NCBI GenBank assembly: GCA_030704615.1
Contig: CM060732.1
Coordinates: 45,198,001 to 45,262,000, forward strand
From: Takakia lepidozioides
Lineage: Eukaryota; Plantae; Bryophyta
Direction of reading: 5' to 3'
Length of the DNA: 64,000 bases
Shown here piece by piece: positions 28,287 to 50,399 of this stretch (positions within the stretch are counted from its first letter, which is position 1; each line of letters starts with the position of its first letter). A program made the position numbers and the translations under genes. Under the pieces are notes generated by a model, which worked only from the letters and a program-made list of their open reading frames with translations, did no database searches and was not told the origin of the DNA.

Positions 28287-28974
28287 TTAGAGACCGTTGA
28301 CACCGAACGTGGGCAAGCCAGTACAAGGTGGGCATGTACAAGTTGGTTTCAACAACCTGGAAACACAATTCAGTGCTACCAGGCAACTCGCCCAAGTCGC
28401 AAGCTTCCAGAAGAGAGGATGGCGTGCTTGTGAGGTCACCGCTCTGGCTTTTCTCTGTTCCGGCTGTCCTGTTTCCTTCTTGCTTGTTCCATTCTTATGC
28501 ATTTTATGAGCTTCTACATACGGGGGGCAATTGTTGTTGGAAAAGGAAGGGGAGGGCGAAAGCTCTTCCAATTCCGAAATGCGATGCCAGACAGGGTTAC
28601 TCACGGGAAGCACAGATAGGCGCAGCTGCTTCAGAAGCACAAAGTCTGCTATGTCGTCTTCCGTTTTGAGCAGAGCCAGGGGCACGGGCTTGGGAAGGGG
28701 ATGGAGTACCTGCACGTCCACCATACCGCACTTGCCGGTACCTGACATGAGATGGGTCGGGGTAGAACCCCTTCACCTCTTGCACCACGCCCACGGCTGC
28801 GGGGCTCTTCCCGGTGTGATAGAAGAAGCAGAAATCACCCTCCTGCATGCTCCTCAAATGCTTCTGCGCCTGCGCATTGCGCACACCATCCCACTGCGAA
28901 ACACCTCCATTGTGGGCCTGCTCCCGCCATCCAAATTCTGCGGGCTCTGTTTTGAGCAGCCAGTACGACGCCAT
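28287..28974 (-). pseudogene. EVE-domain (THYN1-like) gene, intronless, frameshift near 28745
   Basis: MASYWLLKTEP..WDGVRNAQAQKHLRSMQEGDFCFFYHTG..FYPDPS, then in another frame TGKCGMVDV..LKQLRLSVLPV..W. This is the classic EVE signature. Confidence 0.85.
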
Positions 28975-31029
28975 GGAGACTTTGTAAAAGGAGGTTTTGA
29001 GTAGATACTGACCTAGAGCCCTTTTACGTTGGCTACAGTCGGGGAAAGTGAGAGATACTGGTAATGTTATGCAGTTATTCGGAAGAGGCATGTGCTAAGG
29101 GCGCAGCACTTTAAGGATCCGTGCACAATGTGATCAAGCTGCATTTGCAGCCCAAGGAGCATTGCCATTGCTATGCAGGCAATGCGAGCGTGTGTTTGCT
29201 CCAATGGTGAAGAGGAACAAAGAGACCCCTCAGTTGTTTTCGGGAAGACTGGGGGATATGACTTATGTGGAGACGAGATTTGCTTTTCTTTATGTGCAGA
29301 CTGTGTGATTTGCTACATTGAGGACATTCTGAGGAAAGTGGTCATGAATACGAGAAGAATGTCGTTTGATTTGCTTTGGGATGTGACGTAGATTGAGAGA
29401 GAGGTGCACTCAGGATCAGGAATGGCAGTGATGCATGAAAGTTTAGCAAACCATGATATGACTGTGGTGCATGGTGCTCCTGATCGTGTGGCTGTGCAGG
29501 GTCGAATCAAAGAAGCTCCATCTTGCCGCGTCCTAACTACTCTACTCTTTATGACTGCTTGTGATCAGGTATTCCTCGAGCCTGGTATTGAGCCTGGTCA
29601 ACCTTGGTCTGCTTGGGCAGCAATTGTCTGACGTGAATGTGCACCACGTCAAATCAGTTCTGTGACTCCAACAGCCCAAGTGAGGTCAACTTCTTGCCTG
29701 TCCAATCCTTCCTGGCTGGATATATGCCACCCAAAGATAAGTAAAGCTGAATCTCATTTGTCCTTGTCAAGTGGATAGCATTCTTTTTCTTGGCACTTGG
29801 ACACTTGTCAGAAGCTTTTGGGTGGTAAGGGTTGCTAAGCCCTGTTATTTGGTTCATCTAACAAGCCTGCTGTTTTCTTCTGTTTTCTTGTCTCTCTCTC
29901 TCCCAACCTGCTTGCACATCACTCAGGACAAGGATTTAAAACGAATGGCGATTGACGATTGAAGGCATTTTTGGAAATTGAAGACAGGAATTGTTCCAGG
30001 AGGGAGGAAGCAGCAATGGCAGGGAGTTGGTTGTTCTATATTACACTTTGAACAGCTCATCAACAGACCTGCAAGGGTCAGTGAATTTCTACAGTGTAAG
30101 GAGGTGCGTCATCTTACCCACGTTGACTCTCCCTGTCCCCTCTTCAACTACCCATATCACAGAAGTATTACCTTTCACTTGAGCCTCCCATCATATGATC
30201 TATATGATAGCAGACTAATCCCTTCTGGTAATTGCTCAGGTTATGCTATGTGTTGAACGGAGAGCTTTACTAGCCAATGAAATTTCAAGCTGCGAGGCCA
30301 TATCAAAGCCCTTTGGTATTCCCTCGTTCTATCTAGGCTTTGTACATTCCTTCAGTGACTTCATAATGAGGAATGTGTCTGCTCTAGACTGAAAGAAGGA
30401 AAAAAAGGAGGGTTTATGATGTTAGCCTATGAGACCAAAGACCAAAAATATCCTATGAAGAGTTCCAATACCAAACTGAAACAAGTGAAAAACAGGAGGC
30501 AGCGGAGAGACACTTTTTCCTCCCCAAGACTTCCAAATGAGGGGACCTATTACAGATCACAGTAACTGAGCTACCCTCCACCTTTCCTTCCTCCTCTCAA
30601 TCCTTCACTGTTACATGGCTTCCACAAACAAGAGAGGTGGACTGAGAAATGTAGAAATATCTTGGTCAGCAGCTTTTTGTACCACTTTGCCCATCATTGT
30701 TTTTAAAATCACTCAAATCTGTCTATACTTTCATGAAGAAATTATCTCCCAGATTCTTTTTTTGGATCATGAGGTCACGATCGATCTGGATATCTTCTCA
30801 AACCGCGCAAGATCATAGTGAACTAATGCTTTGATCCGGACAAGCTGCCTGCATTGCCTTTCTATGCCAAACAATATTCAAAACCAAGGACAAATACTCC
30901 ATAATAGCTGGTCCATTCCTCAATTTAAAGTATAACGTCAGCATCTTCACCAATCAGAAGATGACAATTGGCACCCGGCTTTGGGACTAAGGATGTTTTT
31001 CTAGAAGTCGAGGGCGGGTGGGTACAAAT

Positions 31030-31115
31030 CATCCCAGTACTATTCCGGCCCAAAGGCGCTTAACTTCAGAGTTCTGATGGGATCTGGTGTAGTAGCCTTG
31101 GTATGACCGCACCAC
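31030..31115 (-). rRNA. 5S rRNA gene, 3'-truncated (first ~86 nt; pseudogene)
   Basis: Reverse complement GTGGTGCGGTCATACCAAGGCTACTACACCAGATCCCATCAGAACTCTGAAGTTAAGCGCCTTTGGGCCGGAATAGTACTGGGATG is bryophyte-type 5S. It breaks off inside box C. Confidence 0.92.
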
Positions 31116-31139
31116 GACATGAGTTGCCCTCGCTTCCTA

Positions 31140-31145
31140 CTTATA
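31140..31145 (-). promoter_or_regulatory. TATA-like element at -30/-25 of the 5S gene
   Basis: TATAAG 30 nt upstream of +1, with C at -1, as in plant 5S upstream spacers. Confidence 0.6.
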
Positions 31146-31384
31146 CTGGCTCCTTCTCTCTTCATTGGCCTCATGCATGTAGGGCCACGGACATGCGACA
31201 TATCGGCCCCCCAAAATAACATAAAGTAAAAAGGCTGGCAGCCTTCACTTTCCCGGGCCGCCATGTCAAACTTGGCACAAAAATAGTCTTGCGTACAAAT
31301 CAGGGCAGTTTTGGGGGCCAGAAGCCCTATCCATGTAAGGGTTGTTCGCGGAGTGAAACGCGGCTACGGCCACCCGACGGCGGG

Positions 31385-32041
31385 CGGGCGGGCGCTGCAC
31401 CCCATCAAATGCACGCTTGAGCAGTGCGGGTGGCATCAAGTTAGTCCACCATAGCCGTGGACGATGAGCCCGTGACCCCACTGTTGCTGCATCTAGCAAC
31501 ACTGCTAACCCAAGCCACGACCGGACTTGATGCACACTGGCCATCACCCTGGCCCGAGAATCGTCCATCAGTGGCACATTCTCCAAGATGTATGATGGAG
31601 ATACAGCTTGATGAAGCTGCAAGTGGCGCAAAATCCGCATCATCTCCCAAAACAGACCCGACCTCGAGTCTCGCAATGGATTGCCATGCCCGGCTGATGA
31701 ATACCCTTGGCAAGGCCAACCTGCCACTACCAGATCAATGGAGCCAACCCGCTCCAAATCTTGCGTCCCCAGCAACGAAATGTCTGCTGGCAAGGCCTGT
31801 TGATATCCACGAATTGCAGACACCGACAACAACTCAGGTACCGCTGCACCAACTGAGCAACATGGCGAAGTGAAACGCGTCGTGCAGTCTCATCCCTCTC
31901 CACATACAGGTATCGCCGAACTCGTACACCTGCCTGTAACACAGTAGCCAATCCGGTGCTGATCCCGCCAAACAAGTCCAGAAGACAAATGTCTTCATCC
32001 GGATACTGCCACACAATAGGTGTGGTGTCCAATGGAGACAA
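31385..32041 (-). pseudogene. DNMT3-like DNA (cytosine-5)-methyltransferase domain, motifs I-VIII, frameshifted and truncated
   Basis: ICLLDLFGGISTGLATVLQAGVRVRRYLYVE (I/II), DLVVAGWPCQG (IV), YILENV (VI), RAHRPRLWWTNL (VIII; compare DNMT3 AAHRARYFWGNL). Confidence 0.88.
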
Positions 32042-32396
32042 CTGAGGTGGTCCTGGTGCAATCCCGCACTCTCCTCCTCTCCTGACGGTACAAAAGCCTC
32101 CACTCAGGCTTGTTGCACCCGTCGATCAGCATCCCACTGCAAATCCTTGCTCGTGCCCCACAATGGAGTCTGAGCAACCATGGTAGGCAACTCCGTCATA
32201 CCATACATGTCATCCTGCTCTCCCGGAGGTGGCACATCCTGAATGAGCGTTGCCCTCAAGCAACTCTCTAGGCCAACTCACTGCCGCTGTGAATGCTGCT
32301 AGTGTCGGCATCTTGCCTTGCTGGGCAACCGCAACTCCTCCTATGAACGTCACAGGGAGCTGCACACGCCGGCCCTCCCCTGACTGCCATGCAGGC

Positions 32397-33284
32397 CTAT
32401 AGGAAGCTGACTCCTCCCAAAAAATCCAGGGTGAAGCCCATGGGGTACAACACTGCCCCACCAACCAGAACATTGTATGAGACCGCGTCTGTCACAATGG
32501 CCTTGGCTTGCATCAGTGAGCCATCTGTAGGGTGATCTGGCCGTAGTCTGATAGCCAACTCACGCCGTGTCATGCCCCGAGCCTGCTCCGATCCTCCTAG
32601 AGACGTCTGTATTTGGAAAGGACAAGGCTCCATATCCGCCTCCGTGAGGCCCAAGCCTGCAATAGCAGCTCTGCCCAGCATCAGTGGCTGAGCTCCCGAA
32701 TCCAACAAGACCCGCAGTGGCCGGTATCTTTTGCTTGCCGGTCCACTCAAATAGAAAATGTCATCCTGGTTGTTTAACATGACAACTCCAGGTGTCACCA
32801 TGGCGCGCTCAATGGCTGGCCTAGCTGGCAGCTCCATCAACCTGGCAGCTGCAGCTTGCCATGGCGCCGTTGTGGCAGTCTTGACCCTCAAATCCGAGGA
32901 TCCCTCCGGCACTACACCTCCCACTATCTCCGCAGAAGATGAAGTAACCTCCCCACTCTCACAGAATGTAGCTGCCAGCCTGAACACCTCAGCTGGTCTT
33001 ACCCCCGGCGTCGCAATCATGGTAGCCGAGAACAATGGAGCCTGGCACACAGATGTGGCCGCTCCTAGCAGCACACTAGCTGCCGTAGCCTTGGCAACAC
33101 TAGGTAGTGGTGCTACCCATGTAGCTCTCCCCAATGGCATAGTAACCTCCGCCTCGGCAACAGTCGGGCGAGAACTAGGTGCCATGGATGGCGTCGACAC
33201 CTGTCTCTGCCAATGTGAATGACTGAGGAAGCCTAGCCTGACGGCTTGCCTCCCCACGTTGTGGATCCAACGCCACCTCTGCAT
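32397..33284 (-). pseudogene. Retroviral-type aspartic protease region of pol
   Basis: RVLLDSGAQPLMLG..YNVLVGGAVL: D-S-G catalytic motif and a C-terminal ILG-like motif. Confidence 0.8.
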
Positions 33285-33525
33285 CTCGTGGCTCAGGAAC
33301 TCGTTCTGCTCCTCAAGTCACGGCTGCAGTAGACTCCACCTGCACTAGTGGTAGTGCTGCTCCACACATAAATCCCATGCCTCCCATATCTCCTCCCTCA
33401 GGAGCAGGAGGTGGACCATCCGGCCTTAGAGCCGGTACCACCTGAGCTGTAGCCATGGCAGCGAGCCTCTGCTCTAGCTGCTATAGCCGGTTGGCCATGC
33501 CTTGGTCAACCCCCTGACCTCCGCG

Positions 33526-34923
33526 TCATTGGCCATGTTGAGCTTGCCCTTGGCCTGCACCTCGTGGCTGGCCACCTCGTCCTCTCTGGGCTGCTCCACC
33601 TCGCCCCCGGCCACCATTGTTCCCTTGGAACTGGCCTGGGCGCAACTCAGGATGCAAACCATAACACTGGGCCTCTCCATGCCCGTGCTTGCCACAATGC
33701 CCACACTGCAACTGTGCAGGCTGTGCATGTGCCGGCCCTTTGCCTCCCTCTGGGCAATCCTTCTTGACATGGGGTCCTCCACATGTCCAGCACACCACAT
33801 CCGCCCGTTGTTGGCCAACAAATGAAGGGAGAGACCCCTGCATCTGAGGTCCTCTCTGCCCTTCCCTGAGCTTCACCTGAGCCCCCTTGTTGCCTTGAGC
33901 ACGTTGAGGTAGTGGTTGGCTAGGTACACCACTACCCCGTGGTGTCTCCTTAGCAAATCCCACCATGACCACTCGTTCCTCCACCATGTTGAGCTCTATC
34001 CGCTCTACCAGCAAAAACACATTTGCTAAGGTGGGTTGGGCCGCTTGTAGGAGAGTTGCATCCCGCACCCTTCTCCTCAGCTCCTTGTCCAATATCCCAT
34101 ACCAGAATTGGACTGCCTGAGCTTCCGTAACCCCTTGGGTTACATTTATCAAGCGCCTCATGCAAGTGAAAGCCTCCCTCAAGCTCTCGGTCGGCTTCCG
34201 TTGGAACTCTTGCAAGCTCCGCAACTTCTCTGTCCTCACCCCTTGGTAGTTTCCTCTCAACTCTTCAAAGAACTCCACAACAGGGTTGAAGGCAGGCACG
34301 GGTGTTAGTGCCGGTGCGGTAGTGGCTTGGGTGGACGTCGTAGCTACTGTACCACCAGTCCCACTAGTCCCACTGCTACTTGCTGAAGCTGCCGGTGCAG
34401 CGGCAGGTGTAGCCACTGCCCTCGTGGCTCTAGTGCCCCTAGTGATGGAGACATAGTCGGGTGACCAGTACATCCTCCACTCCTCGATCTCAACCTCATG
34501 CCCCCGCCTGAACTCATGGTAATCATCCATAGGCGGCCCCTCAAGGTGCTGAAACAGTCCCTTCCATGCCATGAAAGGCGTAAATAGTTGTGGATTGCAC
34601 ATTTGCTGCAAAATCACACCAACTATCAAACTCTTGGATAAAATCATCCAACTCGATGGTGCCCACCGCCCCAGAGTACCTCGTGGCCCCTTGGTAGCTC
34701 CATACATCTCCTCCATTGTGTCCCACAACAATGGCAAAGAAACAACTTGCACCGCCGGTATGAGTCCTCCTGATTCACAATCCGAATCAGAACCTTCCGT
34801 AGAAGACACAGGAGGTGAAGGTGGCCTAAACCGCACACCTCGTCTCGTGTACCCACTAGTATTGCTAGTGCTCGAACCGGCACTGTCCCCAGCAACTAGT
34901 GGCATCTCCGTGTTGACACTCAA
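33526..34923 (-). pseudogene. Retrotransposon gag with two zinc knuckles
   Basis: 465-aa ORF with a retrotransposon gag-like core, CX2CX3HX4C and CX2CX4HX4C knuckles and an RGG-rich tail. Local compensating frameshifts near 34600-34700. Confidence 0.8.
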
Positions 34924-35539
34924 CCGGTCATGAACATGTCCCTAACCCCCTCTCCACAAGGTAACCGGGTAAGAAACCTGTTGCGGCTTATGGTTTGGAA
35001 TACTAAGTTCCTAACATAGCCTACACATGTACCTGCATCCACCGCAAGCACTCCTATGGTTGGCTGGTCATCACCTCCAACCTCACCATAGGAGAAACAA
35101 TGATGGTCTGGCTGGTCATCACCCCAGCCTCACCATCAACAGCATGCTCTAGGACTGGCCGGTGATCAAATCCGGACCAATCACCTATAAAACAAGCGCG
35201 CCACACAAAACTGGCATGGCGCACAGTCAAGCATGCAGGTATGGAGGGGATCCAAACACAAGAAATCAGAACGACAACTCCCCCGCACCAAAAAAAACTT
35301 CACGGTGTTGCTCCTGCAATGACACCCCAGCCCAAACCCGGACTGACTCTTGCCTCCACCTACGGAAAGGTCTTGGCCTAATGAGAGGGTGGAAACTACG
35401 AGGAAGAGAAGCTAAAGCAATGCCTAACCCCAGCATGCCCTCATCCCAACACTCTTCATCTCCTCTCTTCTCTCACTTGCATGACCATGGGAATATCATG
35501 AAGATACTCCTCAAACCGCCCTCCCGTCCACAGGTCAAC

Positions 35540-36365
35540 ACGGGCCACCACAGACCAGCACAGGCCCACACAGCTCACAGGCCACAGCCTGTCACAGCCC
35601 TACACAGGTCACAGGGTCACAGCCCACAGGCCGCAGCCTGTCACAGCCTGTCACAGCCCGTCACAGCCCCACAGGCCCACACAGCCTGCCACAGCCTGTC
35701 ACAGCCCCGCACAGCCCGTCACAGCCCCACAGGCCACTGGCACAGCCTTCACAGCCTGTCACAGCCCAAAGGCCTAGGCACGGCCTGACACAACCCCTCA
35801 CCCGTCATAGCCCCAAAGGCCTCAGGCACGGCCCGTCACAGCCCCTCACAGCCCCAAAGGCCTCAGGCACGGCCTGTCACAGCCCCAAAGGCCACGGCAC
35901 AACCTGTCACAGCCCCGCACAGCCCGTCACACCCCCACCACCGGCGTAGCCCGTCACAGGCCCTCATAGCCCGTCACAACCCGAAGGCCACCGCACACAG
36001 GCCCTCACAGCCCCACAAGGCCCCGCCACCGGCACAGCCCTCACAGCCACAGCCCCCACCGGCGTAGCCCGGCACACAGCCCCTCACAGCCCCTCACAGC
36101 CCCTCACAGCCCCAAAGGCCCAGGGCCTGTCACAGCCCTCACAGCCCATCACAGCCCCAAAGGCCACGGGCTGTCACAGCCCGCGCCCGGCCAGGGGCGC
36201 ACCCGTGACAGCCCCTCATCACAGCCCCAAAAGGCCACCGGCACAGCCCCTCGCAGCCCGGCCCAGCCCGTCACAGCCCCAAAGGCCAGGGGCGCAGCCC
36301 GTGACAGCCCCTCACAGCCCATCACAGCCCCAAAAGGCCACCGGCACAGCCCGACACAGCCCCAT
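35540..36365 (+). repeat. Degenerate tandem array of CACAGCCC/TGTCACAGCC units in the retroelement leader
   Basis: About 830 bp with dozens of cacagccc units, G-rich (GGGCTGTG) on the element's sense strand. Confidence 0.9.
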
Positions 36366-36859
36366 CCATGGCCGCTCTAGCAGTTTAGCCATTTCTCCAA
36401 GGGGTTTAGCCACGCCAAGCTAGGGTTTGTGTCTCTTGGACTCTAGGCTTCTTTCCACCGAGCTATGGCGGCTGTGAGGAATCAGCAAGGTATTCTTGCT
36501 CTTTCGGCTCCCACACACCACCATAGTAGCCCTAAGCCATGAGGTGGTTGCCACAAACCAAGCCTTCTTTCTCACTTAGCCTCCCCAAACACACCACTAA
36601 ACTCAATGGCAAACAACCAAGCCCTGTTGGTTCCCAGCCCTTGTGAGCACTCATTCAAGTACTCTCCTTGGCCATAGCATCTGTCTTAGAGCCTATTCCA
36701 GCCCCCTACACCTGCTGCTTCAAGAGTTGCGCTCCCTTCAAGCTTGAAGTTGAAACCCCAACTCACATAGGCCCTACAAGTGCTTTTCTTTCACTCCAAG
36801 TGGAAACCAGCCCTAGACCTTCCGTTCTAGCTCTCTAAAGCTTGAAAACAAGAGCCTCA

Positions 36860-37125
36860 ATGGGCTGAAGGCATGCTCCACACATGCCCCACTCTCACCA
36901 TAAGAGAATCAGCTCCTTTGCTTCATTTCTTGCACCCACAAACCTGAAAATACAAGCTTCGGGCTGAAAGCATGCTCCACATGCTCTACATGGAAACCAG
37001 CCCCTTCCTTCATTTCTTGCACTCCCACACCTGAAAGTGCAAGCCTTCACCAGGCTGATAGCATGCTCCACACATGCATTGCCCTCAAAGCTTCAATGAG
37101 CTGAATACATGCTCCACACATGCAA
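36860..37125 (+). repeat. Four spaced copies of GCTGAANGCATGCTCCACACATGC
   Basis: Copies near 36863, 36962, 37054 and 37100. Confidence 0.75.
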
Positions 37126-37700
37126 CCAGTTCTCAGCTTTGCCACCAAAGCCACTATAACCTGCTCTTGACTGGTCCTCTTCCCAATCGTGCTTGCTCAT
37201 GCATGTACACAATCTGAAACCATCAAGGTGCTCTGGAATTACCTGCAGCATGGCGCTTTCATCTCTGAAGCTGAAGATCGAATGCCAAGGTCTACCACCT
37301 CGTAACCCACATTGCCTCCGCTTCTAACAACCAAGAGCTCCACGGTGCTCCTTGCATAACAACTTGGTTTCTCTCATTCTCAAGCAAAAACCACAAGTGC
37401 TACAACTAACTCGTATCTGGCACTCACAGATACGAGCTGATCTTTCTCGAGTGATAACGAAGAAGAATACAAGCACAAGCTCATGCGAGCTCACAAAGCT
37501 GAAGCATAAACTCATGTATATATAACCTCATCACTCAAATACAAGTCAAGCCAAGTGCACCCCACACCATGGGGAATCCACACTACGGTGCCATAGCTAG
37601 GCGCGGTGAGGCTCAACTCGAGAAAGATGAGCCTCCCGCGCTTGCCGTGAAGATAACCACTCTAGGGCCTAAATCTGCCTTGACCCCTGGATTGACACTT

Positions 37701-37779
37701 GGGCCAATCCCAAATGTCAATATGTAAAAGCTAGCTATTTCCTAGCTAGTTTCACACTAGTGGTAAAATAACTTGACAA
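37701..37779 (+). repeat. 79-bp direct repeat, copy 1 (copy 2 at 50321-50399)
   Basis: gggccaatcccaaatgtcaatatgtaaaagctagctatttcctagctagtttcacactagtg..acttgacaa, 77/79 identical. Confidence 0.95.
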
Positions 37780-38880
37780 ACTGATCCATAGTCTCCCATT
37801 TGTTTTCGGATATCATGCGTTGCCGATTGAATTGAAATGTGGCGTATAAAGCAGATCGGCCAATGTGATATCTGAATCTCAGTGTTGAACGATCGACAAC
37901 ACATTTAATGACATCTGCTCCAATGGTGATTTTTGTATCCCATCCACTATCCATCAGTGATTCCAACAGCTTCTCACATGGTTCTTTGAAATTGAACATG
38001 GTATTGCTCTTAGAGATACTATTGGCCACGGAAAATAGATCTACCATTACTCTGATTGACATAAACCATTGTAAGTGGGTTGATTTGCTTCCTGTTCTTG
38101 GATTCATAGAGGATAAGAAATCAGACCGCAACTTAAGTCTGAAAGACTCACTCATCGCCATGTCCGGTAATGGCCAAGCTGGGTCACTAAAACCAGGAAG
38201 AGGGATTGGCTGCACTGTTCCAAACTTGGATCTACCGTTGCGTGGGGTTTAAAATGCATTGTAGAAGTACACATGATCGCGTAGAAGCTCCTTGTGCGTT
38301 CGATTTCCACGGCAAGCCTCACCTACTTCGGCGTGCACCACATATAGAACATCCATTATACTCTTCGGATCAATCCAATCTTCAAAGGTGGAAAGGTATA
38401 GGTCTGCAATAAAACCCCACCCTCATCATATAGTTGTTCCACTGTGCACAATACAAGGTGAACTTGATAGCAAATAATGTAAACTTATGAGGATCTTAGA
38501 CAACTCACAATTGCAATCACCTCTGCCGAAAGCTGCAACTGGAGGCAAATCGAGTTGTCGTTGCATGTAAGCATGTTGAACACAAATTTTGGATACCGCT
38601 GTGGATCCACCTTCGAAACAAAACTTCAGCACCTTGTTCGCCCCCTCTGTTGTAGAAGTTCTGCCGTGCTTCAATGAATCTTTAGCATGATCGCCTCTTC
38701 TACCCGACATCAATGCTACCCAAGAGTTACTCTCCACCTTTATGGGTATCCAATTATCATCCTCATCTTTCGAATTGAACAAGATCGCAGATCCTACTTC
38801 ACTTCGTGGCCGCATTTTGTTTCAGATTCACAATTCCCTCTGTATCCCACCAAGAAATCAACTTAGGATTTGGAATGAGA
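37757..38880 (-). pseudogene. Two-exon gene of unknown function with a BAH-like domain; premature stop
   Basis: A phase-1 GT-AG intron at 38508-38404 joins KICVQHAYMQRQL..GDCN to YLYLSTFEDWIDPKSIMDVLYVVH..DHVYFYNAF*. The TAA is at 38249-38251 and the frame continues to VKLFYH* at 37757. Confidence 0.5.
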
Positions 38881-39739
38881 TTTGGAACATGAGATTTGGA
38901 TTTGCAGCTTTTCTGCACCTGTCAGCTTTGCATCGCCGGGGATTCGGCCAGCTGCTGTGTTCAGACTAGCAGCTAGACTCTGTGAGAGTGGTGATGCATC
39001 TACACTATCTGCGGAGATAACAGATAAGGTCTATGGATGCTTTGGATTCGAGGGTGAAGTCATCGTGCCATGGCAAGCGGCAGCTGCAAACCCGGGGGGT
39101 GCACTCCAGCCAATATGTACCAGCCACGTGCGTGCACAGGAGGGGTATTTTAAACCCCTCCATGTACAACATTATACATATAGAGGGGGTTTATATCACC
39201 TTAAATATAATCTTACAGGAGGGGGTTACTAAGTTTTAGGAGTAGTCTAATGGTAAGGGCGTAGAATGTGGCGTGACACATCGCGGGATCAAATCGCGAT
39301 GCAATGTCTTTTTTTTTTTTTTTTTTTTTTTCTCCCCGCAATCTGTCTCCCGCGGGCTCTCTTTTCCCTCCTCCCCCGCACCCCTTCCGTGTCAGCATGG
39401 TCTTAGCATGCCATGAGCTTTGTGACCCCCTCTCTTTCTTGTTTCTTTTTTCCTCTTATCCCATAAGATCTTTGAGCTTCCTGCAGCCATTGTGAAGTAC
39501 AATCGCATTCTACCAAGATTTGGCGTTTGCGGAATAGTAGCACCCTTCCATGGCCTAAGCATACTCAACAAGGCCTGGCTCCGGAGGCTGAGACAGAAGC
39601 TTTAGTTCATCTTGTGGCTCCTGAGAAACCTGGTCGCTATCTCTCATTGGCGTCTGGTAGCACCTGCTGGTCCTAAGTTTGGTCATCGGGTTTGGGTTTT
39701 GATTCAGGTATGTCCAAACTGATTGCTTTTCTTTCGTTC

Positions 39740-41231
39740 TGTTCCTCTGCGCCTCTCCACCTATCCTCAGCCTCGAGACTTTCAAAGTTGGTAAACAGGG
39801 GTATAGGCACAATTCCCTTGATAGAATTGAAGAGAGCGTCTCTTTGGTGAGAGAACCCCAGACAGTGTATCAGAAAACGAATATTGTCTTCAGGTTGCCC
39901 ACACAACGGACAATTGCACTCTCCCTTTCCTCGCTGCTTCTGTTTGCTGTTCAAAGGTAGGCTTCCTGCCCTGAGTTTAAATTTCAGTCTAGTGCCAAGA
40001 GTGGGTAGACCCTTGAGGTCATCCAAGATGTCCACCCCCATGTCACTGACGGGAACAAGTTCAGGGAAGTTCTCTACCTAACTTCATTTTCATCAGACAA
40101 TCTCATGGCAACAGACATGGCTTCAGACACTACAGCCTCTAAGTCAGATTTATCCAGCAGGGTCAAGACTTGTGGATCCAGGTCAAGGTCCTTGAGAATC
40201 TTTTCTACTCTCTTCTGCCAGGACTTCGCCTGTTTGACAGGGTTTAGGGTTTCCAAGATATAGAGTCGATTAACTTAGGATATCTGGTGTTGGGCATATG
40301 TTGCAGCTGACCCCACCATCTGACCTTGATTTCATCTCGTCGGGAGCTTAATGATGGAATGCCAAACTCACCCCGAACAGCCACATTGGCTGTTTTGGAG
40401 CATGCTGACATACATTCCTTAAGCGCCCCCACTTGAATGGATTCTAGAGACTTAGCCTGGTTGGAGTTATCAACCCATATAGCAGATCCGTACTCCAAGG
40501 CAGGTCTAATAACGCGAGAAAGCATGGTTTTCTTAACCTCAGAGTTGACCCCTGTGCAGTGGAAAATTTAGTGAGCCCCAGAGCTTTGCCCATTTGGTGA
40601 GAGAACCCCAGACAGTGTATCAGAAAATGAATATTGTCTTCAGATTGCCCACACAATGGGAAGTGCACTCCCCCTTTCCTCTCTGCTTCTGTTAGATGTC
40701 CTCCCCCATGTCACTGACTAAAAACAAGTTCAGGGAAGTTTTCTGCCTAACTTCATTTTCATCAGACAATCTCATGGCAACAGACATGGCTTTGGACACT
40801 ACAGCCTCTAAGTCGGATTTATCCAGCAGGGTCAAGACTTGCGGATCCAGGTCCAGGTCCTTGAGAATCTCTTCTACTCTGGTGTTGGGAAAACACCTTT
40901 TGATCTCAGTCCAAACCAGGAAGTGGTCAGAGGTACCAATATCAGTTCTGTCGATCATCGAAGAGAAACACTCGGGGAACAAATTTTTGTCCATTATGAT
41001 ATAGTCCACAATGGAACGTTCCCCAGTTTGGGATTTCTCACGAGTCCACTGCACTTGGTCACCTCTTGTCTTGTTATTCAAGGTCAAAAGCTGAAGCTCT
41101 TCCAGACAGTTAATTAACCGTCTGCCATTAGAATTCAGCTCGTCCTCACCAGAAGACCCAATGATATCGTCCTGATGGAGCCCTTTGCCCACTTGCGCAT
41201 TGAAGTCACCTTGCAATAGCACCACAAACAT
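39740..41231 (-). mobile_element. Rearranged LINE ORF2 fragments (APE endonuclease, RT C-terminus, zinc finger) nested in the P-like element
   Basis: QGDFNAQVG..SIVDYII..SDHFLVW (APE); RPALEYGSAIW; CPLCGQPEDNIRFL. Internal duplications 40074-40210/40745-40880 and 39840-39945/40590-40692. Confidence 0.85.
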
Positions 41232-41805
41232 GAAGAGAAGCTTTGGAATCTGACACTTTTCTGCCCCCAGTCAATGGTGGGACAATGTGGGTGGATGGTC
41301 AACTGGAAACTGCAGCGCAACAGCGCAATTGATAGAGCAAGGCATTGCTGATGAAGGTACCTTCTTCAACACATTTCAGCCTGAGGGCACCTTCTGGTTT
41401 GACCTGTTTCAGCCTGTTTTTCCTCTCATCCTCCTCAGCCCTGAAGCATATGTATTGAATTCTGTAAGTTAGCTCGTTGGGTGGATTTGCGGTGCGTTGG
41501 AGTGACTTTGCAAGTTTAGGGCCGAGGTGGCAGCATGACAGGGAGGGGTAGCTGTTGATGCAGGGAGAGGATCGTGGGTGCAAAATCATCCAAGAGGGCC
41601 AGATTTGGAGCAAGGAACAGCGCTGGCAGGAGTTCTATAAATATGATCCACAACGGTGGGACAATATTGTCAACAAGGTGAGCTTTCTTCATGCAACATC
41701 GTAGGGAGTTTGACAGAACTTTGTATTTAAATATGTTAGTGTGGAGGGAGGGTAGCCGCTGATGCAAGGATGGACTGTGGGTTCAGGATCACCCAAGAGG
41801 GCTAC
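41232..41805 (+). other. Mosaic of PDF-PPR gene-family fragments (exon and intron pieces)
   Basis: EEKLWN..PSQWWDN, WVDGQLETAA, EQRWQEFYKYDPQRWDNIVNK|gtgagc and NHPRGPD. Intron pieces aagttagctcgttgggtggat and gggtagc..gtgggtgca match 14750-16400. Confidence 0.75.
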
Positions 41806-42035
41806 CAGCAGTGGAAGTAGCAGCATTTGGTCAATAGCAGCAGCAAGAATTAGCAACGTCAAACTCATCAATCAGGTACTTGCTTCTGTATACATTTCAT
41901 CCTCTTATCAACGTAGTCCCTGCTTGGACAGCCTATAGGGTTGTATAAAACAGGACTTTGGAACCTTCCAACCCGGGTGCTTTGTTATTGGTCTATCAAG
42001 GTCTGATTTGAAATGTTTTCATTGCATTTTGCAGG

Positions 42036-45000
42036 TGAACTCATCATGGAAGAAGAGTTGGAAGTAAAAGTCCTGCTCGTTGGAGGAGATGCATCACCAA
42101 ACAGGCTTGGTTCTGTGTTCACTATGCAAGGTGTCACATACAAATGCATCCGAGCAGAAATTATAGGTGATGAGCTTGTCTCAGCAAAATTTCATTTCCT
42201 TTCCATGGGGGGTAGTGTCCTTTCAGCCAAGCAAGAAGAGAGGATGGTTCTGAAAGGGGATACTGTACACATTAAGATTTCAGACCAAAAGATGGGGACC
42301 AAGGATTGAAAAGACCTCTATCTTCCAGTGGTTCTACGATCTTGCATGAGGACAGACCAGGCGAGGACCCGGCACCAGTGTCTACCAAGATGAGGATGGA
42401 CCCTGATACACCCTTTGCTGGCGATGGTGGAAATGAAGACCATGCACATGAGCATGCACTTCAGCAGAGATCTGGTAGATTGTGCAGCACGTTGGCTACA
42501 TCCAACGATATTCAAAAATGGCAGAAAGAGATTAGAGCCGTTGAAAGGAAAATCTCTGCAGAAGGACGATGTGACAAGTTTGAGCTGATGACAAAGGATC
42601 AACAAGGACAAGCAATGTTCCACATATGGTGTGTTGAGTGTGAGGATGTTTATGCACGGTCTGGGAAAAACAAACCATATGATGCATGTGCAAACTTTAT
42701 GAGATCTCATTTGAGGAGTGAGGGCATCGCATAGCCTATGAGAGGCGTCATGGGAAGGGTTCATCACAATGTGTCATCAGCCCTGTAAATGCAGATGAAG
42801 CATTAGACGCAAAGAAGAACAGGGTGAAGGAGGCATTAGAGGAAGTCGCTCGGTTTTGTGAGGACAATCCTGGAAACAGATTTGAGATTGTGGAAGCCAC
42901 AATTGGAGACTATTCGCAGTTGGGTTCCATAAGGATTAGGTGCCCACTTGATTCGAAGTGGCTACTCTTGTTTCCAAGGACAGTTCTTTGCAATCTTCTT
43001 TGACAGAGCATGTGAAAGGAAAAACTCATGTCGATGCAGAGATTTGCCAGAAGGTTGAAAGTAGTGAAGGACCTTGCAAAAAGAGAGGAAGGCCTCCAAA
43101 GCCTATGATTGCCAAAGATGTAAAGCAACGGGATCTAAGCTCTTTCTTGGTCAGTCAACCTGTGTTGCCGTCCCCACCACTTGACAATCCAATTGTGGCA
43201 TCAACAATGGGAGCATCCTCGTCACAAACTCCATACGCTTGTGTTGACGCTGCCCAACGGGGAGATCTGATCGAGGATTGACAATTACAGCAAAGGTCCC
43301 AATGCAACAAAGGAAGAGACAGTTTGTGTTGGGGCCTATGGGATGAATGGTGGGAGTACAACCAGCAGAGAATAAGTCTGAAACCATTCCTTCAAGATAG
43401 CAAGGGAGGAAAGAAGTGGTATGTCGAGCCGTTGACAAATGCAACCATCACTCTAAACAATCAAGAGCATAAGGTTGTTGGTACGTTTCGGCACGCGGAT
43501 TGTTTTAGAGTGTCATTGGATGGGGAGCCATTTCCAAACTTGAGATGTTCAGCATGTTCTTCCATTCCCTTGGAAAATGACTTCAGAATGAGGGTATATA
43601 GAGAAAGAGGTGCCATGGAATGTAGAGGGGAGAGAGAGATACTGGCAAGGGAAGAAGGTTGTCATATCTTGGAAATGCGGAGATTGTCAAACAAGTTTAC
43701 AAAAACAGACAGGAGTTGAGGCAGTTGAGGTTCAAATTGTGGGAGGCCAGGACCAAAGTGGCATCCTTGTCTGTGCGATGTAGGAGTTTGAAGGAGTCTG
43801 GGATTGAGGCAATTGAAAGAGGAGATGTTCTCAAATTTTGTCGTGATATTGTTGATGCACATAGGAGGGGGATTTTGAAGGAAAAGAAAGTTTGTGGGAT
43901 TTTCTTGTTGATATGGGCAAGAATATTGACAGGTCTCCACAAGGGAAGAGGTATGGTACTAGCACAAAAACAATGTTTGAGACTGTGCAGCTTTGGGGGG
44001 TCCGAGATTGCATCATTTTTTGGCTTCAAATGTGGGGGGTCCTTCTATTGATACTACAAGACGGTCTTTGAGGAAAGGTTTGAAGTATAGAGCGGGAGAA
44101 ACGGATGATATATTTCAGCATGTGGCTGGAATTTACAGAGATGTGATGGAAGATGCAAATATTCCATTGGGAAGCATCCCAGTGATGGTGGCCGAAGATG
44201 AAACTGTTGTGAAGCGATTGGTACGTTGGATTGCTAGGGATGACACCCTTCTCGGGTTTTGTGGGCTTCAAGACAACCATGTATGTATTTCAAATTTTGT
44301 GGTGCAAGTGGGAGAAGGGGAATCAGGGTACAAACATATTGTGGAGGCATTCAAAAACAATGTGGTTGCCCATTATGCTAGAGTGTTGATAGCAAATCCT
44401 CTACATGTACGGTTACCTCGATTGGTATTGGTAATCCAGCTCACTTGCAATAGATTTGACAACAATTTTGTGAGATCACAATGGGAAGTGGTGAGACAGT
44501 TGTGGGACAAATATGTGAGGGACGTGGGTCCTATAATTGGGCATGCTTCAGACGGAGATAGTAGGAGGAGAAAAGTGATGTTAGAAGATTATGCCAATGG
44601 GGCTGGAAGTAGATTTTGCATCCCTTGGGAAGGATGGTTGTTTACAGGTCGAGTGTGCAACGGGGGAGATATATACGGACTCCATGATCAGGACTTCATC
44701 CACAATGGGAAAAAATTGGTAAATCCCTTGGACAGTGCATCACGGACTTTGGTGTTGGGTGATGAGGTTGCTACATTGAATCATGTGTTATTGGTCTACC
44801 ATTCATTTTCAGTGGACAAGCATGGACTTCGGGAATGTGATATCAAAAGAGAAGATCGACAGAATTGGGCAGCAGCTCAACGACTGGCATCTCGGAAGGT
44901 GCAAGCTTGTTTGAGGGAGTTACAATCAACTGTGAATCATCGAAGAGAGAGGACCAAAGGTACTGAAATTTACCTATACATCATTTCATGCTACATCGAC

Positions 45001-46443
45001 ATTTTTTTGTCTCCTCACATGTCATTGTGTGAGAGGGTACAATCTGCTGCGAAGGTATCATTTTTTTTTCAGATTGTGGAAGTTGTGGCTATTCCACCAC
45101 GAGGTGTATAATCTGAAATCCTTCTTCATTAGCAGGGAAGCATACTTGGATTTACAAATTTCATGCCACTACGTGGTTCTACTTATCAAATTGTTCAAGG
45201 ATAAGTTTAATCATGTGCAAGTTCCTTTGAGCCTTGTTTGTTCAGATGTGTGTGAAATATTCTTCAGCAAAGTGGGAGGTATGTTACGGAATGAGAGGAC
45301 ATATGACGGGTGTGATTTGATTGAGAGTGCGGGAGCATTAACACGCATATCCGAGTTCGAGGCGAATCCAAAAGGACCCAAGTTCTCAAGAGCTCACAAG
45401 AAACAAGAACACATATGGTCTTCTTTGGAGAAGAAGCCAGGTATCCCCCTTGCTGATTTGTCCGACTTTTTCTACTGTCCCAATCGGATGATTGCATTGT
45501 GGAGGCTTTGAAAACTGGATTTCTAGAAGCGCAACTTTTATGCCATAAACTTGGGATGAAACCAAACAAAGCAACAAACTTGGATTGGTGGAATGAGCCA
45601 TGGACAATTGAGAGACAAATGGAGGAGGAGGGTGATGATGTCGATGCCATAGATTCTATTTGTCCTCTTAATGCAGACACACATATTCAAAATGAGGTCG
45701 TGGAAGATGAATTGGTGTGCGGGCCTTCGAATTCAATGGAGGATGTTTTGAGCCAACCTTTGGATGATCATGCGGAAGAGGTACTTGTTCAAAGTGAATT
45801 GAGACATACTCTGGATGCTGTCATTGATGAGTTTGAACAAGAGAAAGATGGATCGAAGGCAGTGGTTCCATTTGTCAAAGTAGACGGGAAGACCATATTC
45901 AAAAGCACTTTGGTTAGCCAACTCAATGGCAACCCTACTCTATCCAAGGATAGATTGACACGAGTAAGAAGTGCATCGATGTTGTTTTGCCGAGAAAACA
46001 AACCAACTACCAACAACAAAGCCACGAGCTTGGGATTGGGTTCGGATTGTGCTGTATTTTTTGTTGATGGGGAGACTGCGATCCAAACTACAAACAGGAA
46101 AGGTAGACCAGGGAAAACCTGCAGAGGAGCAACCAAAGGCACTTGGTATTTGGGCAGGGTTCAAAGAATGCGGAAGAAAATCAATAAGCGGTTTGTAGAA
46201 TGTAGGGATTCTGTTGATTTATTGGAGCGTCCTTCTCATATGGAGATTGGGTTAGCATGGTACCAAAAAATTCGAGGAGGGGTCTATACGTACGATTTGA
46301 CGGATAACATGATGGTTGATTTGGATTCCATTATCGCGTTAGCATGTTTAAAGTACAATGTCAAGTCAAACACATATGTTCTTGATGCAAATGATCGAAA
46401 AGTCTTTGACAACTTTATCAAAGGCAATTTTTTTTTAAATTAA
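42036..46443 (+). pseudogene. P-element/THAP9-like DDE transposase with N-terminal zinc fingers, multiply frameshifted
   Basis: VAEDETVVKRLVRW..DTLLGFC, ASDGDSRRRK, QDFIHNGKKLVNPL (DxxH), DRQNWAAAQRL and SDVCEIFFSKVGG parallel the P-superfamily motifs FDEM../CDMG/DxPHLxK/KMxVxxAAQ/QDxLENxF. N-terminal WCVEC..HLRSEG and IRCPLD..HVKGKTH are zinc-finger-like. Confidence 0.72.
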
Positions 46444-48607
46444 TTTGTTAGATTTTATTATGTTTTAAATAAATAAATTCGATATAATATAAAAACATAC
46501 ATATACATATTGGAGGGTTATTTTTAATGATGAAAAATGAGAATATACATACAGAAGGGGGTACTTTCCAAAATTTGTAAATTTTTGTATATTTACAGGA
46601 GGGGATTTTATAATCTTCAAAAAGTATGTACAGAGGGGGTATAAATCAACCACCCAGGCACTATACAGGGGGTTTTATTAGGCGACGAACGCACGTGATA
46701 CGCACAGTTTATAAAGAGTGCACCCCCCGGGGCTGCAAAGTTGCAGGAGTTGCTAGCTAGACCAGCCATTGAGCGTAGCATGGTGACTCCTGGAGTAGTC
46801 ATGGTAGACAATCAGGATGAAGTGTTTCATTTGGGTGGCCCAACCGGGAGGAGGTATAGGCCACTGCAGGTCTTATTGGAATCGGGAGCACAACCATTGA
46901 TGTTGGGGAGAGCAGCAATTGCAGGCTTGGGCCTTACAGAGGCGGATTTGGAGCCTTGCCTTTTCCAAATTCAAACATCTTTGGGTGGTTCAGAGAAGAC
47001 GCGAGGGATTACACGCCATGAGCTCTTCATTCGAGATCATCCTACGGACAGCTCAGTCATGAGAGCTAAAGCCATTGTTATGGACGCGATGTCCTATGAT
47101 GGGTTGTGTTGTACCCCATGGGATTTACTTTGGACTTTTGGGAGGAAACGACATCCTACAGGCTGGAGTTGCATCTCCTGCTCCCAGTGCGGTTTTTTGG
47201 GAATGTAGCGGTGAATCATAGGAACATGATGCCCACATTGGCTGCATTCTCAGGGGTGGTGGCTTGGGGTGGTGAGCTCTTGGAGGGCAATAGTCATGCA
47301 GATGATAGGCAACCTTCGGATGAGGACAAGCAACTAGCATACAAGGTTGAGTTGCTTCCTCACGTGCCTATGCATATTCCACTATGGGGTACGGTTGGGA
47401 ATTTACAGCGAGTAGTAGGCGAGAGTGTGCACCAAGCATGGCAGGAGGCATTTCCATTGATGAGTGAGGGGAATTCAGTGACATCACCTGGACCTCCTCA
47501 GTTAGCTCCTTTGCACACAATGCCCATTACCTGGCAACTACCCGACTCAGAGATTTGTTTGCTAGATCTGTTTGGAGGCATGAGCACTGGGCTTGCAGGA
47601 GTATTGCAAGCTGGGATTAAAGTACGAAAGTACTTGTATGTGGAGAAGGATGAGATAGCTCAGCATATTTCTATGCGCCACGTTGCCTTGCTCACACACC
47701 AGTATCCTGAGTTACTGCCTTTGTCAGCAATTCAAGGGTACCAAAAGGCCTTGCCAGCAGACATTACTTTGCTGGGGGCGGATGATTTGGGCCGGCATGG
47801 TGCAATAGACTTGGTGATAGCTGGATGGCCTTGCCAATGACACTCTCCAGCAGGTCATGAGAATGGCTTGCGTGATGCAAGGTCGCATTTGTTTTGGGAG
47901 ATGTTACGAGTGTTGCGTGACTTGCAGGTGAGGCAAGTGCAACCTCTAGCTTACATCCTGGAGAATGTTCCTTTCATGGGGGATTCTCGGGCCAGGGGTA
48001 TGAGTAATGTGCATCAGATGCGGTCTTGGATTGGACCAGCTGTATTATTGGATGCAGCTGCAGTGGGTTCACGGACACATAGGCCTAGGTTGTGGTGGAC
48101 CAATCTTGCACCACCAGAGTTGCTCAAGATCAGAGCTTATGATTCCATTCAACGGCCACCCAACCTCACGGTTGAAGGCATTTGGGACCAAGGGAGATAA
48201 CCACAGAGGGTACGACATGATGACCATCCACCTTTGGCGGTGGTCAATCGATTGGGATAACCACGTGCGGCCTTGCCTACACTCATGAGTTATCCTTCGT
48301 CTCATGCTTTTCGAGACAATGGTCCAGGGTTGATTTGGGACAATGCGTTACAGCAATTGGTGGAGCCTAGTGCGGATGAGCGAGAGCGGGCAATGGGGTT
48401 TGCCACGGGCACTACAGCTGTGTCAGCTCTGTTAGAGGCATCACGACGCCAGGTGTTGGGTCAGGCAATGGATCTCAATTGTTTGACATAGGTCATTGGC
48501 TTGTGCATGGCTGAGCATCGGAGATTGTAAGCATTGGTGGCTACTTCTGTACTTCCATTGGATATCGTACACTCTCTGCCAACCGGGACGGTGGAGGCAG
48601 TTGATGA

Positions 48608-50324
48608 GCCCTGGTCGTGCGCGGCCAGGGTGACGGCATATTAGCCTATGGGGTCGTGGCAAGTTGCGGTGTAGGTTGGGCTCAACGAACCACCTACCCG
48701 ACTACGGTAAGCTGCCCCAAAGTCGCGAGCAGCCCGGAAGGAGCCGGATGTTGTGCCTAGAAAGTAGGGACTTGATTACTAAAAGCGTGGAGGTAGCCGT
48801 GGCCCAGCCACGACGTACGGGAGTGGGGCCCCAGCGCTGTCCTTCAGTCGTACTGAGATCAAGTACATCAACCGCGTGGCTCAGGCGTGAGGCCCTGAAG
48901 CGTGCGAGCAGGGTGCAGGTCTTTACTCGTTGGATAACCAAAAGTTGAGACGGACCGGCGGACGCTGGCGTTAACCGCAACGGTCCACGGTTTGGACCGC
49001 TACGCGCGGATCTGCGCCCCGCCACGTGGCGGGGGGCATTTTACCCAGCGGCAATGCGTCTACAAATTCCTTAAAGGGGGGTATTCTTAACTTTAGCTAT
49101 TAGATTCAATTTATACCCCTCTAAGGGTTATGAGCCATTATCTAAGGCGCCAGTGGTAGATAAAATCTAGGATTTTGGGAGGACGTAGCCTTGGAGGGGA
49201 GCGTTTTTAGGACTCCAAGAGAGAGTCAAGCGGGTCTGGGAGTAGTGAGTTAGAGGCGGAGACCTCAAGAGACAAGGGAGGAGAGAAAGTACTTTATCCT
49301 AAAAACTCGGCTACAGTGAGCATTTGTGTCAGAGCCCAAGGTAGATAATGACTTTTTCCACAGAGGGAAAGCGCACCAACACCTTAAAATAATGTAAGGG
49401 AGGTGAAATCTGGCTTGGACCCACCGGTGGTTATTTTATTATTTACGCGTGCATTTTCTGGACTAACGAATGTAGTGGCAGGGATGAGCTCTCAACGAGA
49501 TTCATTCATCCGATAGCGCCGCAACAGTTCCCCGCGGCAGGGAACGGTTCCCGGGTGTTTCTCGGTTCTCATTGGGTCCCAAGGGCATCTTTAGGCGCCA
49601 AGGGTATCTTTGGATTCCCCACTTGATTTCCCATAGGAAAGGTTTTTTTTTTTTTTTTTTTGATTTTTTGATTTTCTTTTATTTTCTAGCATTTCTGATT
49701 TGCGAAATTGCTTAAATAGGATAGATGCACGTGATGCTCGTTATAGCCTGTAGGGCGTTGATTAAATTGATTGAACTTGTTGAGTTGAGAGGCTTAGAAC
49801 TACCTTATTGAATTTAGTGAACCTATTGGATGACGATAAATTTTGGCCACTCCTTTGCTAAAACCAAGTATTTAGACACTGGGGTAGGAAGCGTTGGCCC
49901 TTCCATTTAGATGTGACTTGAACTCAAGCCCTCGGCGAAGGAGGGGCATTGGGAGATGAAGATTTTCCCTCTTCTCCCTAGGCTCGGCAGGTGCCTTGTG
50001 AAGGGATTAAAACATGTCCCGGCTATAGGCAGCTCGGGGGCCTAGGCGGTAGGAATTAGACAATAAACACAAAGACTTGGAAGGCAATTACTGAGTAGAC
50101 TGTAATACCGTAGGACTTAGAAACGCAAACTCATCATGTGAAGAGGAGTACGTGATTTTTCTTTGCCGGTAGGACTTAGATAGTGATCATAGCCACCATG
50201 TACGACCACGGACCCCCTGCACTAACCGCAGTCGGGTAGGCGGTTCAGTGAGCCCAACCTACACCGCAACTTACCTCGGCCCCCCTAGACTATTATGCCG
50301 TCAACCTGACCGCGCGCGCAGGGC
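48608..50324. mobile_element. 1.7-kb non-coding element with ~100-bp imperfect terminal inverted repeats
   Basis: 48608-48710 (gccctg..tgacggcata..aagttgcggtgtaggttgggctca..gaacc.cctacccgact) is the reverse complement of 50223-50324. No TSD visible. Confidence 0.8.
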
Positions 50325-50399
50325 CAATCCCAAATGTCAATATGTAAAAGCTAGCTATTTCCTAGCTAGTTTCACACTAGTGATGAAATAACTTGACAA
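50321..50399 (+). repeat. 79-bp direct repeat, copy 2
   Basis: Matches 37701-37779. Confidence 0.95.

Follow-up and report, generated by a model that had tools for sequence, protein, structure and literature searches.

In a 64,000-nucleotide stretch of the genome of the bryophyte Takakia lepidozioides (GenBank assembly GCA_030704615.1, contig CM060732.1, forward-strand positions 45,198,001 to 45,262,000; hereafter, the window), we identified two broken copies, A and B, of a retrotransposon in which gag and an aspartic protease (PR) are joined to a DNMT3-like cytosine-5 (C5) DNA methyltransferase (DNMT). Judging by its relatives, this is almost certainly a Ty3/Gypsy-type element that encodes Gag, protease and the methyltransferase in its first open reading frame (ORF1). 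A preliminary description of the window had proposed a retroelement-borne DNMT3-like enzyme in a land plant, and this proposal stands: the same fusion recurs in Marchantia, Calypogeia, Riccia and Sphagnum. The superfamily, left unassigned at that stage, follows from the order reverse transcriptase (RT)-RNase H-integrase in the relatives, these domains being absent from both window copies. The Gypsy-DNMT3 kind of element is known; added here are a bryophyte host range, a readthrough-like junction between the two ORFs, a PHD-bearing integrase and young copies in Marchantia. Statements on published work refer to the portions of the cited papers that were consulted.

Two broken copies in the window

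Six-frame translation located all the parts listed in the preliminary description, namely, gag with two zinc knuckles, protease, and methyltransferase motifs I, IV, VI and VIII, in colinear order on the minus strand. The features of copy A are:

31385..34923, minus strand: gag, protease and C5 methyltransferase, colinear from 34716 to about 31394
37301..37778, minus strand: 5' end of copy A, starting with TGTCA at 37778; probably terminal repeat A, whose inner border is not defined
35529..36372, minus strand: tandem-repeat tract in the 5' leader (repeat families D2 and D4), within the high-depth stretch
33199..34716, minus strand: gag, starting at 34716, with two Cys-His knuckles; disrupted by stops and a frameshift
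32421..33098, minus strand: linker and aspartic protease (LLDSGA, 32691-32708)
31394..32053, minus strand: DNMT3-like C5 methyltransferase with motifs I to VIII, frameshifted near 31838 and cut off near 31393

The first knuckle (CWTCGGPHVKKDC, 33754-33792) has the spacing C-x2-C-x3-H-x4-C, and the second one (CGHCGKHGHGEAQC, 33664-33705) has the canonical spacing. The methyltransferase motifs, which we take to be I (DLFGG, 31964-31978), IV (GWPCQ, 31707-31721), VI (ILENV, 31575-31589) and VIII (HRPRLWWTNL, 31437-31466), come in the unpermuted order. The Pfam check suggested for the enzyme returned PF00145 for the ORF at 31266-31889 (E 2e-13); the gag and protease ORFs of copy A taken alone have no Pfam matches. 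The pieces of copy A align colinearly with the Marchantia protein Mp4g09160, from residue 1 to approximately 1082, with gag 48% identical to residues 1-483. Because these pieces fall in three frames, with stops and frameshifts, the copy is dead. It ends near 31393, downstream of motif VIII, and this truncation is genomic because an X1 contig at single-copy depth crosses the break and is identical across 31103-31403; an X8 contig continues beyond the break.

Copy B lies on the plus strand and is split:

46732..48607, plus strand: main part of copy B, with protease (LLESGA, 46873-46890) and the whole DNMT domain, from motif I (47565) to motif X (48459-48476)
38928..39090, plus strand: 5' piece of copy B (gag-protease linker), a 77% inverted match to 32925-33016
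39091..46731: 7.6-kb insertion splitting copy B; its terminal inverted repeats are perfect over 16 bp, and it is accompanied by an 8-bp duplication

The DNMT part of copy B holds four stops, and the copy is cut before the junction of ORF1 and ORF2; both copies are thus truncated, as had been described. Contigs of X7 extend past both ends of copy B. In run X1, the summed contig depth, which is not a copy number, rises from 63.5 over 29500-30500 to between 2.5e5 and 1e6 over 31170-37849, drops from about 8e5 to about 9e2 across 37850, and is about 1e5 over copy B. The subfamilies of both window copies are plainly much repeated in the host.

Relatives and host range

The search for relatives with the copy B domain, its stops read as X, yielded 58 longer proteins and 179 of near-domain length, 120 of which were listed. 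The named relatives come from Marchantia polymorpha, M. paleacea, Riccia sorocarpa, Calypogeia fissa, Sphagnum troendelagicum, S. fallax and S. tenellum, and reach about 66% identity over most of the DNMT domain. Both window copies align colinearly with Mp4g09160 (1278 aa, Gag-protease-DNMT), which belongs to a 90% cluster of 18 members that also includes MpVg00370, MpVg00540, Mp5g06330 and Mp5g06860, at about 1280 aa. According to our own profiles, the order PR-DNMT is present in 38 of the 58 longer relatives, and is followed by RT, RNase H or integrase in 4 more; the proteases match Asp_protease_2 or gag-asp_proteas weakly. Among metagenome contigs, 187 of 353 stretches were confirmed and 80 were kept as loci. 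None of 68 pattern matches in viral contigs was confirmed, and in prokaryote genomes only two of 134 were (L081 and L082, the latter weak). L081, a whole element of 9.3 kb, sits on a contig assigned to the genome bin of an uncultured cyanobacterium, a placement that likely reflects eukaryotic contamination of the bin.

These data bear on the possibility that the window holds a local chimera, that is, a host DNMT3 pseudogene beside an unrelated gag-protease fragment. DNMT3 is indeed the nearest solved relative of the domain, and our tree was built without host DNMT3. However, the fusion of gag-PR with DNMT is found in both window copies and in many other loci, and lacks introns; the relatives P0002 and P0004 match PF00145 only, without DUF3444, a feature of the host plant DNMT3 (PMC6453930); and both copies group with transposon-borne domains with 100/100 support. 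The linkage recurs in the longer relatives, in Mp4g09160 and in metagenome loci, so that the preliminary description's own counter-scenario, a local host pseudogene with no other gag-PR-DNMT loci, does not describe what was found. We consider a local chimera practically untenable and treat it as refuted.

Architecture of the complete element

In most of the kept metagenome loci, the domain order is gag-PR-DNMT-RT-RNase H-integrase-PHD. Both ORFs are open in L038 and L081, where ORF2 (1047 aa) contains RVT_1, RNase H, H2C2, rve and PHD domains. The Ty3/Gypsy order Gag-PR-RT-RNase H-integrase is present in L038, L081, L043 and others, and the part from RT onward is missing from the window copies.

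ORF1 and ORF2 share a frame and are separated by one in-frame stop. Among the 61 loci with both anchors, 51 have such a stop between DNMT and RT: the junction reads TAR-CAR-YYN in 46 and TAR-TAA-CCC in 5, whereas 9 loci, all of one subfamily, have no conserved stop and one is deleted here. As a background, 146 of 17155 TAR triplets are in the TAR-CAR-YYN context. The 46 loci are not independent, most of them representing a single peat-moss-like family with a DNMT that is sister to an S. troendelagicum protein; the readthrough-like junction is kept in at least four diverged subfamilies (CAACCC, CAACCA/CAACTA, CAGTTA and CAATCA), and the strict form CAR-YYA is found in 8 loci. UAG-CAR-YYA is the readthrough consensus of tobacco mosaic virus (TMV), and murine leukemia virus (MuLV) reads through its gag stop (PMC3159437). 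The sequence pattern at this junction suggests that ribosomes probably read through the stop at times. The Marchantia and Calypogeia ORF1 proteins, compared as proteins only, stop 70-75 residues past the DNMT domain, like those of the metagenome loci.

It is very unlikely, by comparison, that the stop is a true terminator, with ORF2 expressed by splicing, re-initiation or a second RNA. This would fit the gene model MARPO_0091s0058, which joins DNMT directly to RT, and the lack of covariation in the consensus RNA structure 3' of the stop, where a joint fold of 7 loci has double changes in none of 9 pairs. The gene model, however, is an automatic prediction, and the identity of the stop, its frame and the six bases that follow it are conserved in at least four subfamilies in which the surrounding protein differs. 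A stem 3' of the stop beats shuffled sequences in 3 of 6 loci (z -2.4 to -4.0), not in the three closest to the window, and was not used as support for readthrough.

All-against-all comparison of 26 long loci revealed a repeat of about 340 bp at the 5' end (A) and, behind a purine tract, one of 115 bp (B). The long form A-ORFs-B-(2 nt)-A-B is seen in three insertions (L045/L052, L034 and L056) and in the cut L037; nine other loci have the short form A-ORFs-B, ending at the first B. The ends of the relatives are TGTCA...ACA, with an AGGGGGG purine tract, and 4-bp target duplications match in 6 of 7 loci, that is, 5 of 6 insertions, of both the long and the short form. Thus, the TG...CA ends, the polypurine tract and a target duplication in the 4-6 bp range are all present in relatives, whereas copy A keeps only the TGTCA 5' end, which the relatives share. 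Two full direct long terminal repeats (LTRs) are not found, the repeats being split, and no tRNA (TGG-type) primer site was seen by eye behind the first A in 8 loci. The arrangement purine tract-B-CGACA-NN-TGTCA, in which the boundary of B and A reads CA-NN-TG, recurs in the distant L038 and L081. Our hypothesis is that integrase cuts the CA-NN-TG junction, yielding the long and short forms; the short form would also arise if the two B copies recombined with each other.

The order RT-RNase H-DNMT-integrase-PHD defines a second architecture, which is very diverse and is complete in 43 of 141 newly listed representatives (examples are P0051/P0113, P0344, L058, L065 and L071), and its named members are the chlorophytes Hariotina and Scenedesmus. 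No description of it was found in the consulted parts of the cited papers. A protein of the zygnematophyte Closterium sp. NIES-54 (P0418) combines DNMT, RT, RNase H and integrase in one ORF.

The methyltransferase domain

The DNMT domain is closest to DNMT3 among the C5 methyltransferases compared, in agreement with the preliminary assignment to DNMT3 rather than DRM. The best solved relative of the single sequence is DNMT3A (E 3e-12, vs 1.5e-3 for DRM2). By profile, DNMT3A scores 90 bits and DNMT3B 80, followed by four phage enzymes (67-73), DRM (57 and 46) and M.HhaI (40). A model of the unbroken L001 domain (pLDDT 92.8) has DNMT3B as its closest fold (Z 29.1, root mean square deviation 2.7, 279 aligned residues), followed by DNMT3A (Z 27.8) and M.MpeI (Z 25.3), and Foldseek concurs. 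The phage C5 methyltransferases (L083-L086, from Pseudomonas phage Epa40, Synechococcus phage S-CBS2 and others), which outscore DRM on this profile, bear on the origin of DNMT3-like enzymes.

The PCQ motif is present in 47 and ENV in 55 of the 59 domains of the gag-PR-DNMT architecture, in which the motif VIII arginines are conserved as well; in the second architecture, WECQ replaces WPCQ in 39 of 107 domains. Comparing related subfamilies gives ratios of nonsynonymous to synonymous substitution rates (Ka/Ks) of 0.07-0.16, and comparing copy A with copy B gives 0.156; many distant pairs are saturated. The preservation of the catalytic motifs, together with this purifying selection, indicates that DNMT would be a working enzyme in active lineages.

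Phylogeny

A tree of 53 rows, chosen from 179 domains, one piece of copy A and four phage enzymes, was built with IQ-TREE (LG+G4); host DNMT3 and DRM were not included. All 49 rows of retrotransposon-borne domains group against the 4 phage enzymes. Both window copies fall in a clade of 13 rows (100/100) with Marchantia, Calypogeia and Sphagnum, which is nested in a clade of 24 rows (98/99). The Klebsormidium nitens protein GAQ93235.1, Closterium and the chlorophyte-type elements lie outside the latter clade, in an open base that calls for caution because of long branches. The suggestion of an ancient, vertically inherited streptophyte lineage is not established by this tree, given the position of Klebsormidium in the open base. 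The nesting of Sphagnum within the liverwort sequences is as compatible with old paralogy or transfer as with descent.

Midpoint-rooted FastTree trees of DNMT (mostly) and of RT (78 rows) separate the two architectures; since the base of the IQ-TREE tree is open and branches are long, we claim no order of events. A profile search of 1.84 billion representatives, with RT and integrase columns included in the profile, found transposon proteins throughout its best 150 matches.

Proposed function

We lean slightly toward the view that the DNMT of active copies methylates the element's own new cDNA. Ribosomes would mostly stop after DNMT, with occasional readthrough of UAG-CAR-YYN; DNMT would be made at the level of Gag, and RT and integrase at a low level. 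The protease would free DNMT inside the particle, where the enzyme would methylate the cDNA before integration, presumably in the CG context as in SymbioDIRS-Dnmt3, whose domains methylate CG in yeast (PMC5890265). New copies would land pre-marked, and the PHD finger might steer integrase to chromatin marks.

Several observations weigh against this scheme. The KnitGypsy-Dnmt3 domain of Klebsormidium produced no methylation in yeast, a result its authors judged inconclusive (PMC5890265). DNMT is less constrained than RT-RNase H, for which Ka/Ks is about 0.03 in the same L038/L081/L043 pairs, and the young pair L004/L037 is neutral, with a Ka/Ks of 0.97. The CpG observed/expected ratio is 0.50 and 0.44 in the two copies and 0.46 in the whole window; because the depletion equals that of the window, there is no special footprint of self-methylation, and the methylation of its own cDNA or of the host, which the preliminary description had raised as a possibility, stays a hypothesis. 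The largest family has CAA-CCC after the stop, deviating from CAR-YYA at the last base, and nine loci lack the stop altogether. Finally, the junction, ORF2 and the 3' repeats are absent from both window copies and are transferred from relatives about 65% identical in protein.

Two other roles of the domain have to be weighed against methylation of the cDNA. The enzyme might work mainly in trans: upon expression of the family, DNMT made at the Gag level would enter the nucleus and methylate the host's DNA or competing elements. As the junction implies, the stop would yield far more DNMT than RT or integrase; retrotransposon-borne DNMT domains methylated yeast genomic DNA in trans (PMC5890265); and the family is very abundant in the host by summed contig depth, although this is not a copy number. 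Yet DNMT is fused to Gag and would be packaged, and the methylome of K. nitens is plant-like despite such elements (PMC5890265), so that we regard action mainly in trans as rather unlikely. Somewhat less probable still is that catalysis is dispensable and the domain is kept for DNA or RNA binding or as a structural part of the particle. The inactivity of the Klebsormidium domain in yeast, the weaker constraint on DNMT than on RT, and the WECQ variant of the second architecture would all agree with this possibility; the catalytic cysteine, ENV and the motif VIII arginines, however, are conserved throughout the first architecture, and the fold is complete in the L001 model.

Returning to methylation of the cDNA, a broader and considerably more tentative picture can be drawn, of a lineage spread across bryophytes in which readthrough would load particles with a DNMT3-like enzyme at the level of the capsid and cDNA would be methylated before PHD-guided integration. 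Replication would proceed without a tRNA primer, from split repeats whose CA-NN-TG junction is cut by integrase to give A-ORFs-B-A-B and A-ORFs-B, and the young copies in M. polymorpha, annotated as ordinary genes, might contribute de novo methylation that has gone unnoticed.

The reason for which retrotransposons retain DNA methyltransferases has been debated since 2018 without an answer, in part because the carriers known so far are algae, for which genetic tools are scarce. In M. polymorpha, unbroken Gag-PR-DNMT ORFs exist in several nearly identical copies, and methylation mutants as well as methylome data are available, so that action in cis can be told from action in trans by experiment. 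Counts of DNMT genes in bryophyte genomes take in transposon copies, and programs that look for LTR elements by a pair of full LTRs would likely overlook this family. Its readthrough-like junction, its PHD integrase and its split repeats, which end in TG...CA, together point to an undescribed mode of expression and replication.

Other features of the window

Three further features adjoin the copies or resemble parts of them:

50321..50399, minus strand: 79-bp piece, 97% identical to the 5' end of copy A
31009..31114, minus strand: degenerate 5S rRNA copy (RF00001, 58.7 bits) with a TATA-like word upstream, just past the truncation of copy A
48608..50325: 1.7-kb element cutting copy B behind DNMT, with imperfect inverted ends of about 100 bp and no long ORF

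The 5S rRNA copy is joined, via about 280 bp of its upstream sequence, to the broken end of copy A (31009-31393), and an X6 contig covers 31093-31393 and then continues elsewhere; the 5S copy is probably not part of the element. A Cassandra-like role for it was considered and dropped as unsupported: the 5S lies beyond the break, with the TATA-like word upstream, and blastn listed no match of the window's 5' end or leader to the relative loci.

The 7.6-kb insertion in copy B is flanked by the 8-bp duplication GCTGCAAA (39083-39090 and 46732-46739). In language-model features, its ORF at 43981-45108 comes close (0.91-0.93) to clusters of P-element/THAP9 transposases, whereas Pfam and PDB have no matches to it; to our knowledge, a P-like transposon would be unusual in a land plant. 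The insertion is repeated in runs X1 and X6 and contains a fragment of a LINE (long interspersed nuclear element) near 39.6-41.6 kb.

Host exons in the window encode sucrose-phosphate phosphatase (21121-25546), an EVE-domain protein (28287-29094) and ARPC3 (57252-57644). Identity of the ARPC3 exon (91 residues) is highest with Marchantia paleacea (91%), followed by Riccia (89%), Ceratodon (86%), Calypogeia (85%) and Diphasiastrum (84%), and is about 59-71% with flowering plants. Taken alone, this single exon would place the host among the bryophytes, most probably the liverworts. An intronless pentatricopeptide repeat (PPR) gene at 12129-14773 carries E, E+ and DYW domains in two overlapping frames; as far as we know, DYW-type PPR proteins are absent from complex thalloid liverworts, which is hard to square with Marchantia and Riccia giving the best ARPC3 matches.

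Comparison with known systems

No report of a DNMT-bearing retrotransposon in bryophytes was found in searches of the open-licence literature. The consulted parts of PMC9477723, PMC11982613, PMC6453930, PMC10952607 and PMC11244446 contain none, those of the REXdb survey (PMC6317226) mention neither PHD nor methyltransferase, and those of the main text of PMC5890265 mention neither Marchantia nor Physcomitrella. 'Streptophyte' Gypsy-DNMT3 elements are named in PMC12344493 and in a preprint (bioRxiv 10.64898/2026.05.21.726589), one of which cites de Mendoza et al. 2018 at that point; the supplementary trees of both might contain bryophyte sequences.

Among more distant systems, SymbioDIRS-Dnmt3 and SymbioLINE-Dnmt of Symbiodinium resemble the present element in being retrotransposons that carry a C5 methyltransferase, with split repeats in the DIRS type, but they reside in dinoflagellates and rely on a tyrosine recombinase or LINE machinery instead of a DDE integrase (PMC5890265). 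DIRS/PAT elements are defined by a tyrosine recombinase and the lack of target duplication, whereas here ORF2 encodes an rve integrase and the target duplications are 4 bp. EpiLTRs and DAM-LTRs are likewise LTR elements that combine methyltransferase and chromatin-reader domains; they differ in carrying DAM, a DNMT4-sister domain and a chromodomain, and the preprint separates them from streptophyte Gypsy-DNMT3 (bioRxiv 10.64898/2026.05.21.726589). The host DNMT3 of non-flowering plants (PpDNMT3a/b; Yaari et al. 2019, PMC6453930) shares the unpermuted DNMT3-type catalytic domain but, compared by description only, has a C-terminal DUF3444 and neither Gag nor protease. As in TMV and MuLV gag-pol (PMC3159437), an in-frame UAG in the CAR-YY context precedes the polymerase; unlike in those viruses, the stop lies behind protease and DNMT, not Gag alone, and readthrough is predicted.

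The closest known system is KnitGypsy-Dnmt3 of K. nitens (de Mendoza et al. 2018, PMC5890265), which has DIRS-type repeats and encodes DNMT, RT and RNase H together in its Pol ORF. Both are of the Gypsy type and have an intronless, unpermuted Dnmt3-like domain that retains the key residues and evolves under purifying selection (Ka/Ks below 0.2), and DIRS-like split repeats with Gypsy domains are found in the relatives, although not in the truncated window copies. The K. nitens protein GAQ93235.1, flagged as partial and ending 4 residues past the domain, shares the order zinc knuckle-protease-DNMT. The differences are the land-plant host and the conserved readthrough-like stop between DNMT and RT in most relatives; the PHD finger, the 4-bp duplications, the CA-NN-TG junction and the short A-ORFs-B form go unmentioned for KnitGypsy-Dnmt3 in the consulted text of PMC5890265, and the Klebsormidium domain is not sister to the bryophyte clade. 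Because the single-ORF feature is missing and the tree does not join the two, we do not file the element as a member of KnitGypsy-Dnmt3; it is a land-plant variant of the Gypsy-Dnmt3 kind that would work like KnitGypsy-Dnmt3.

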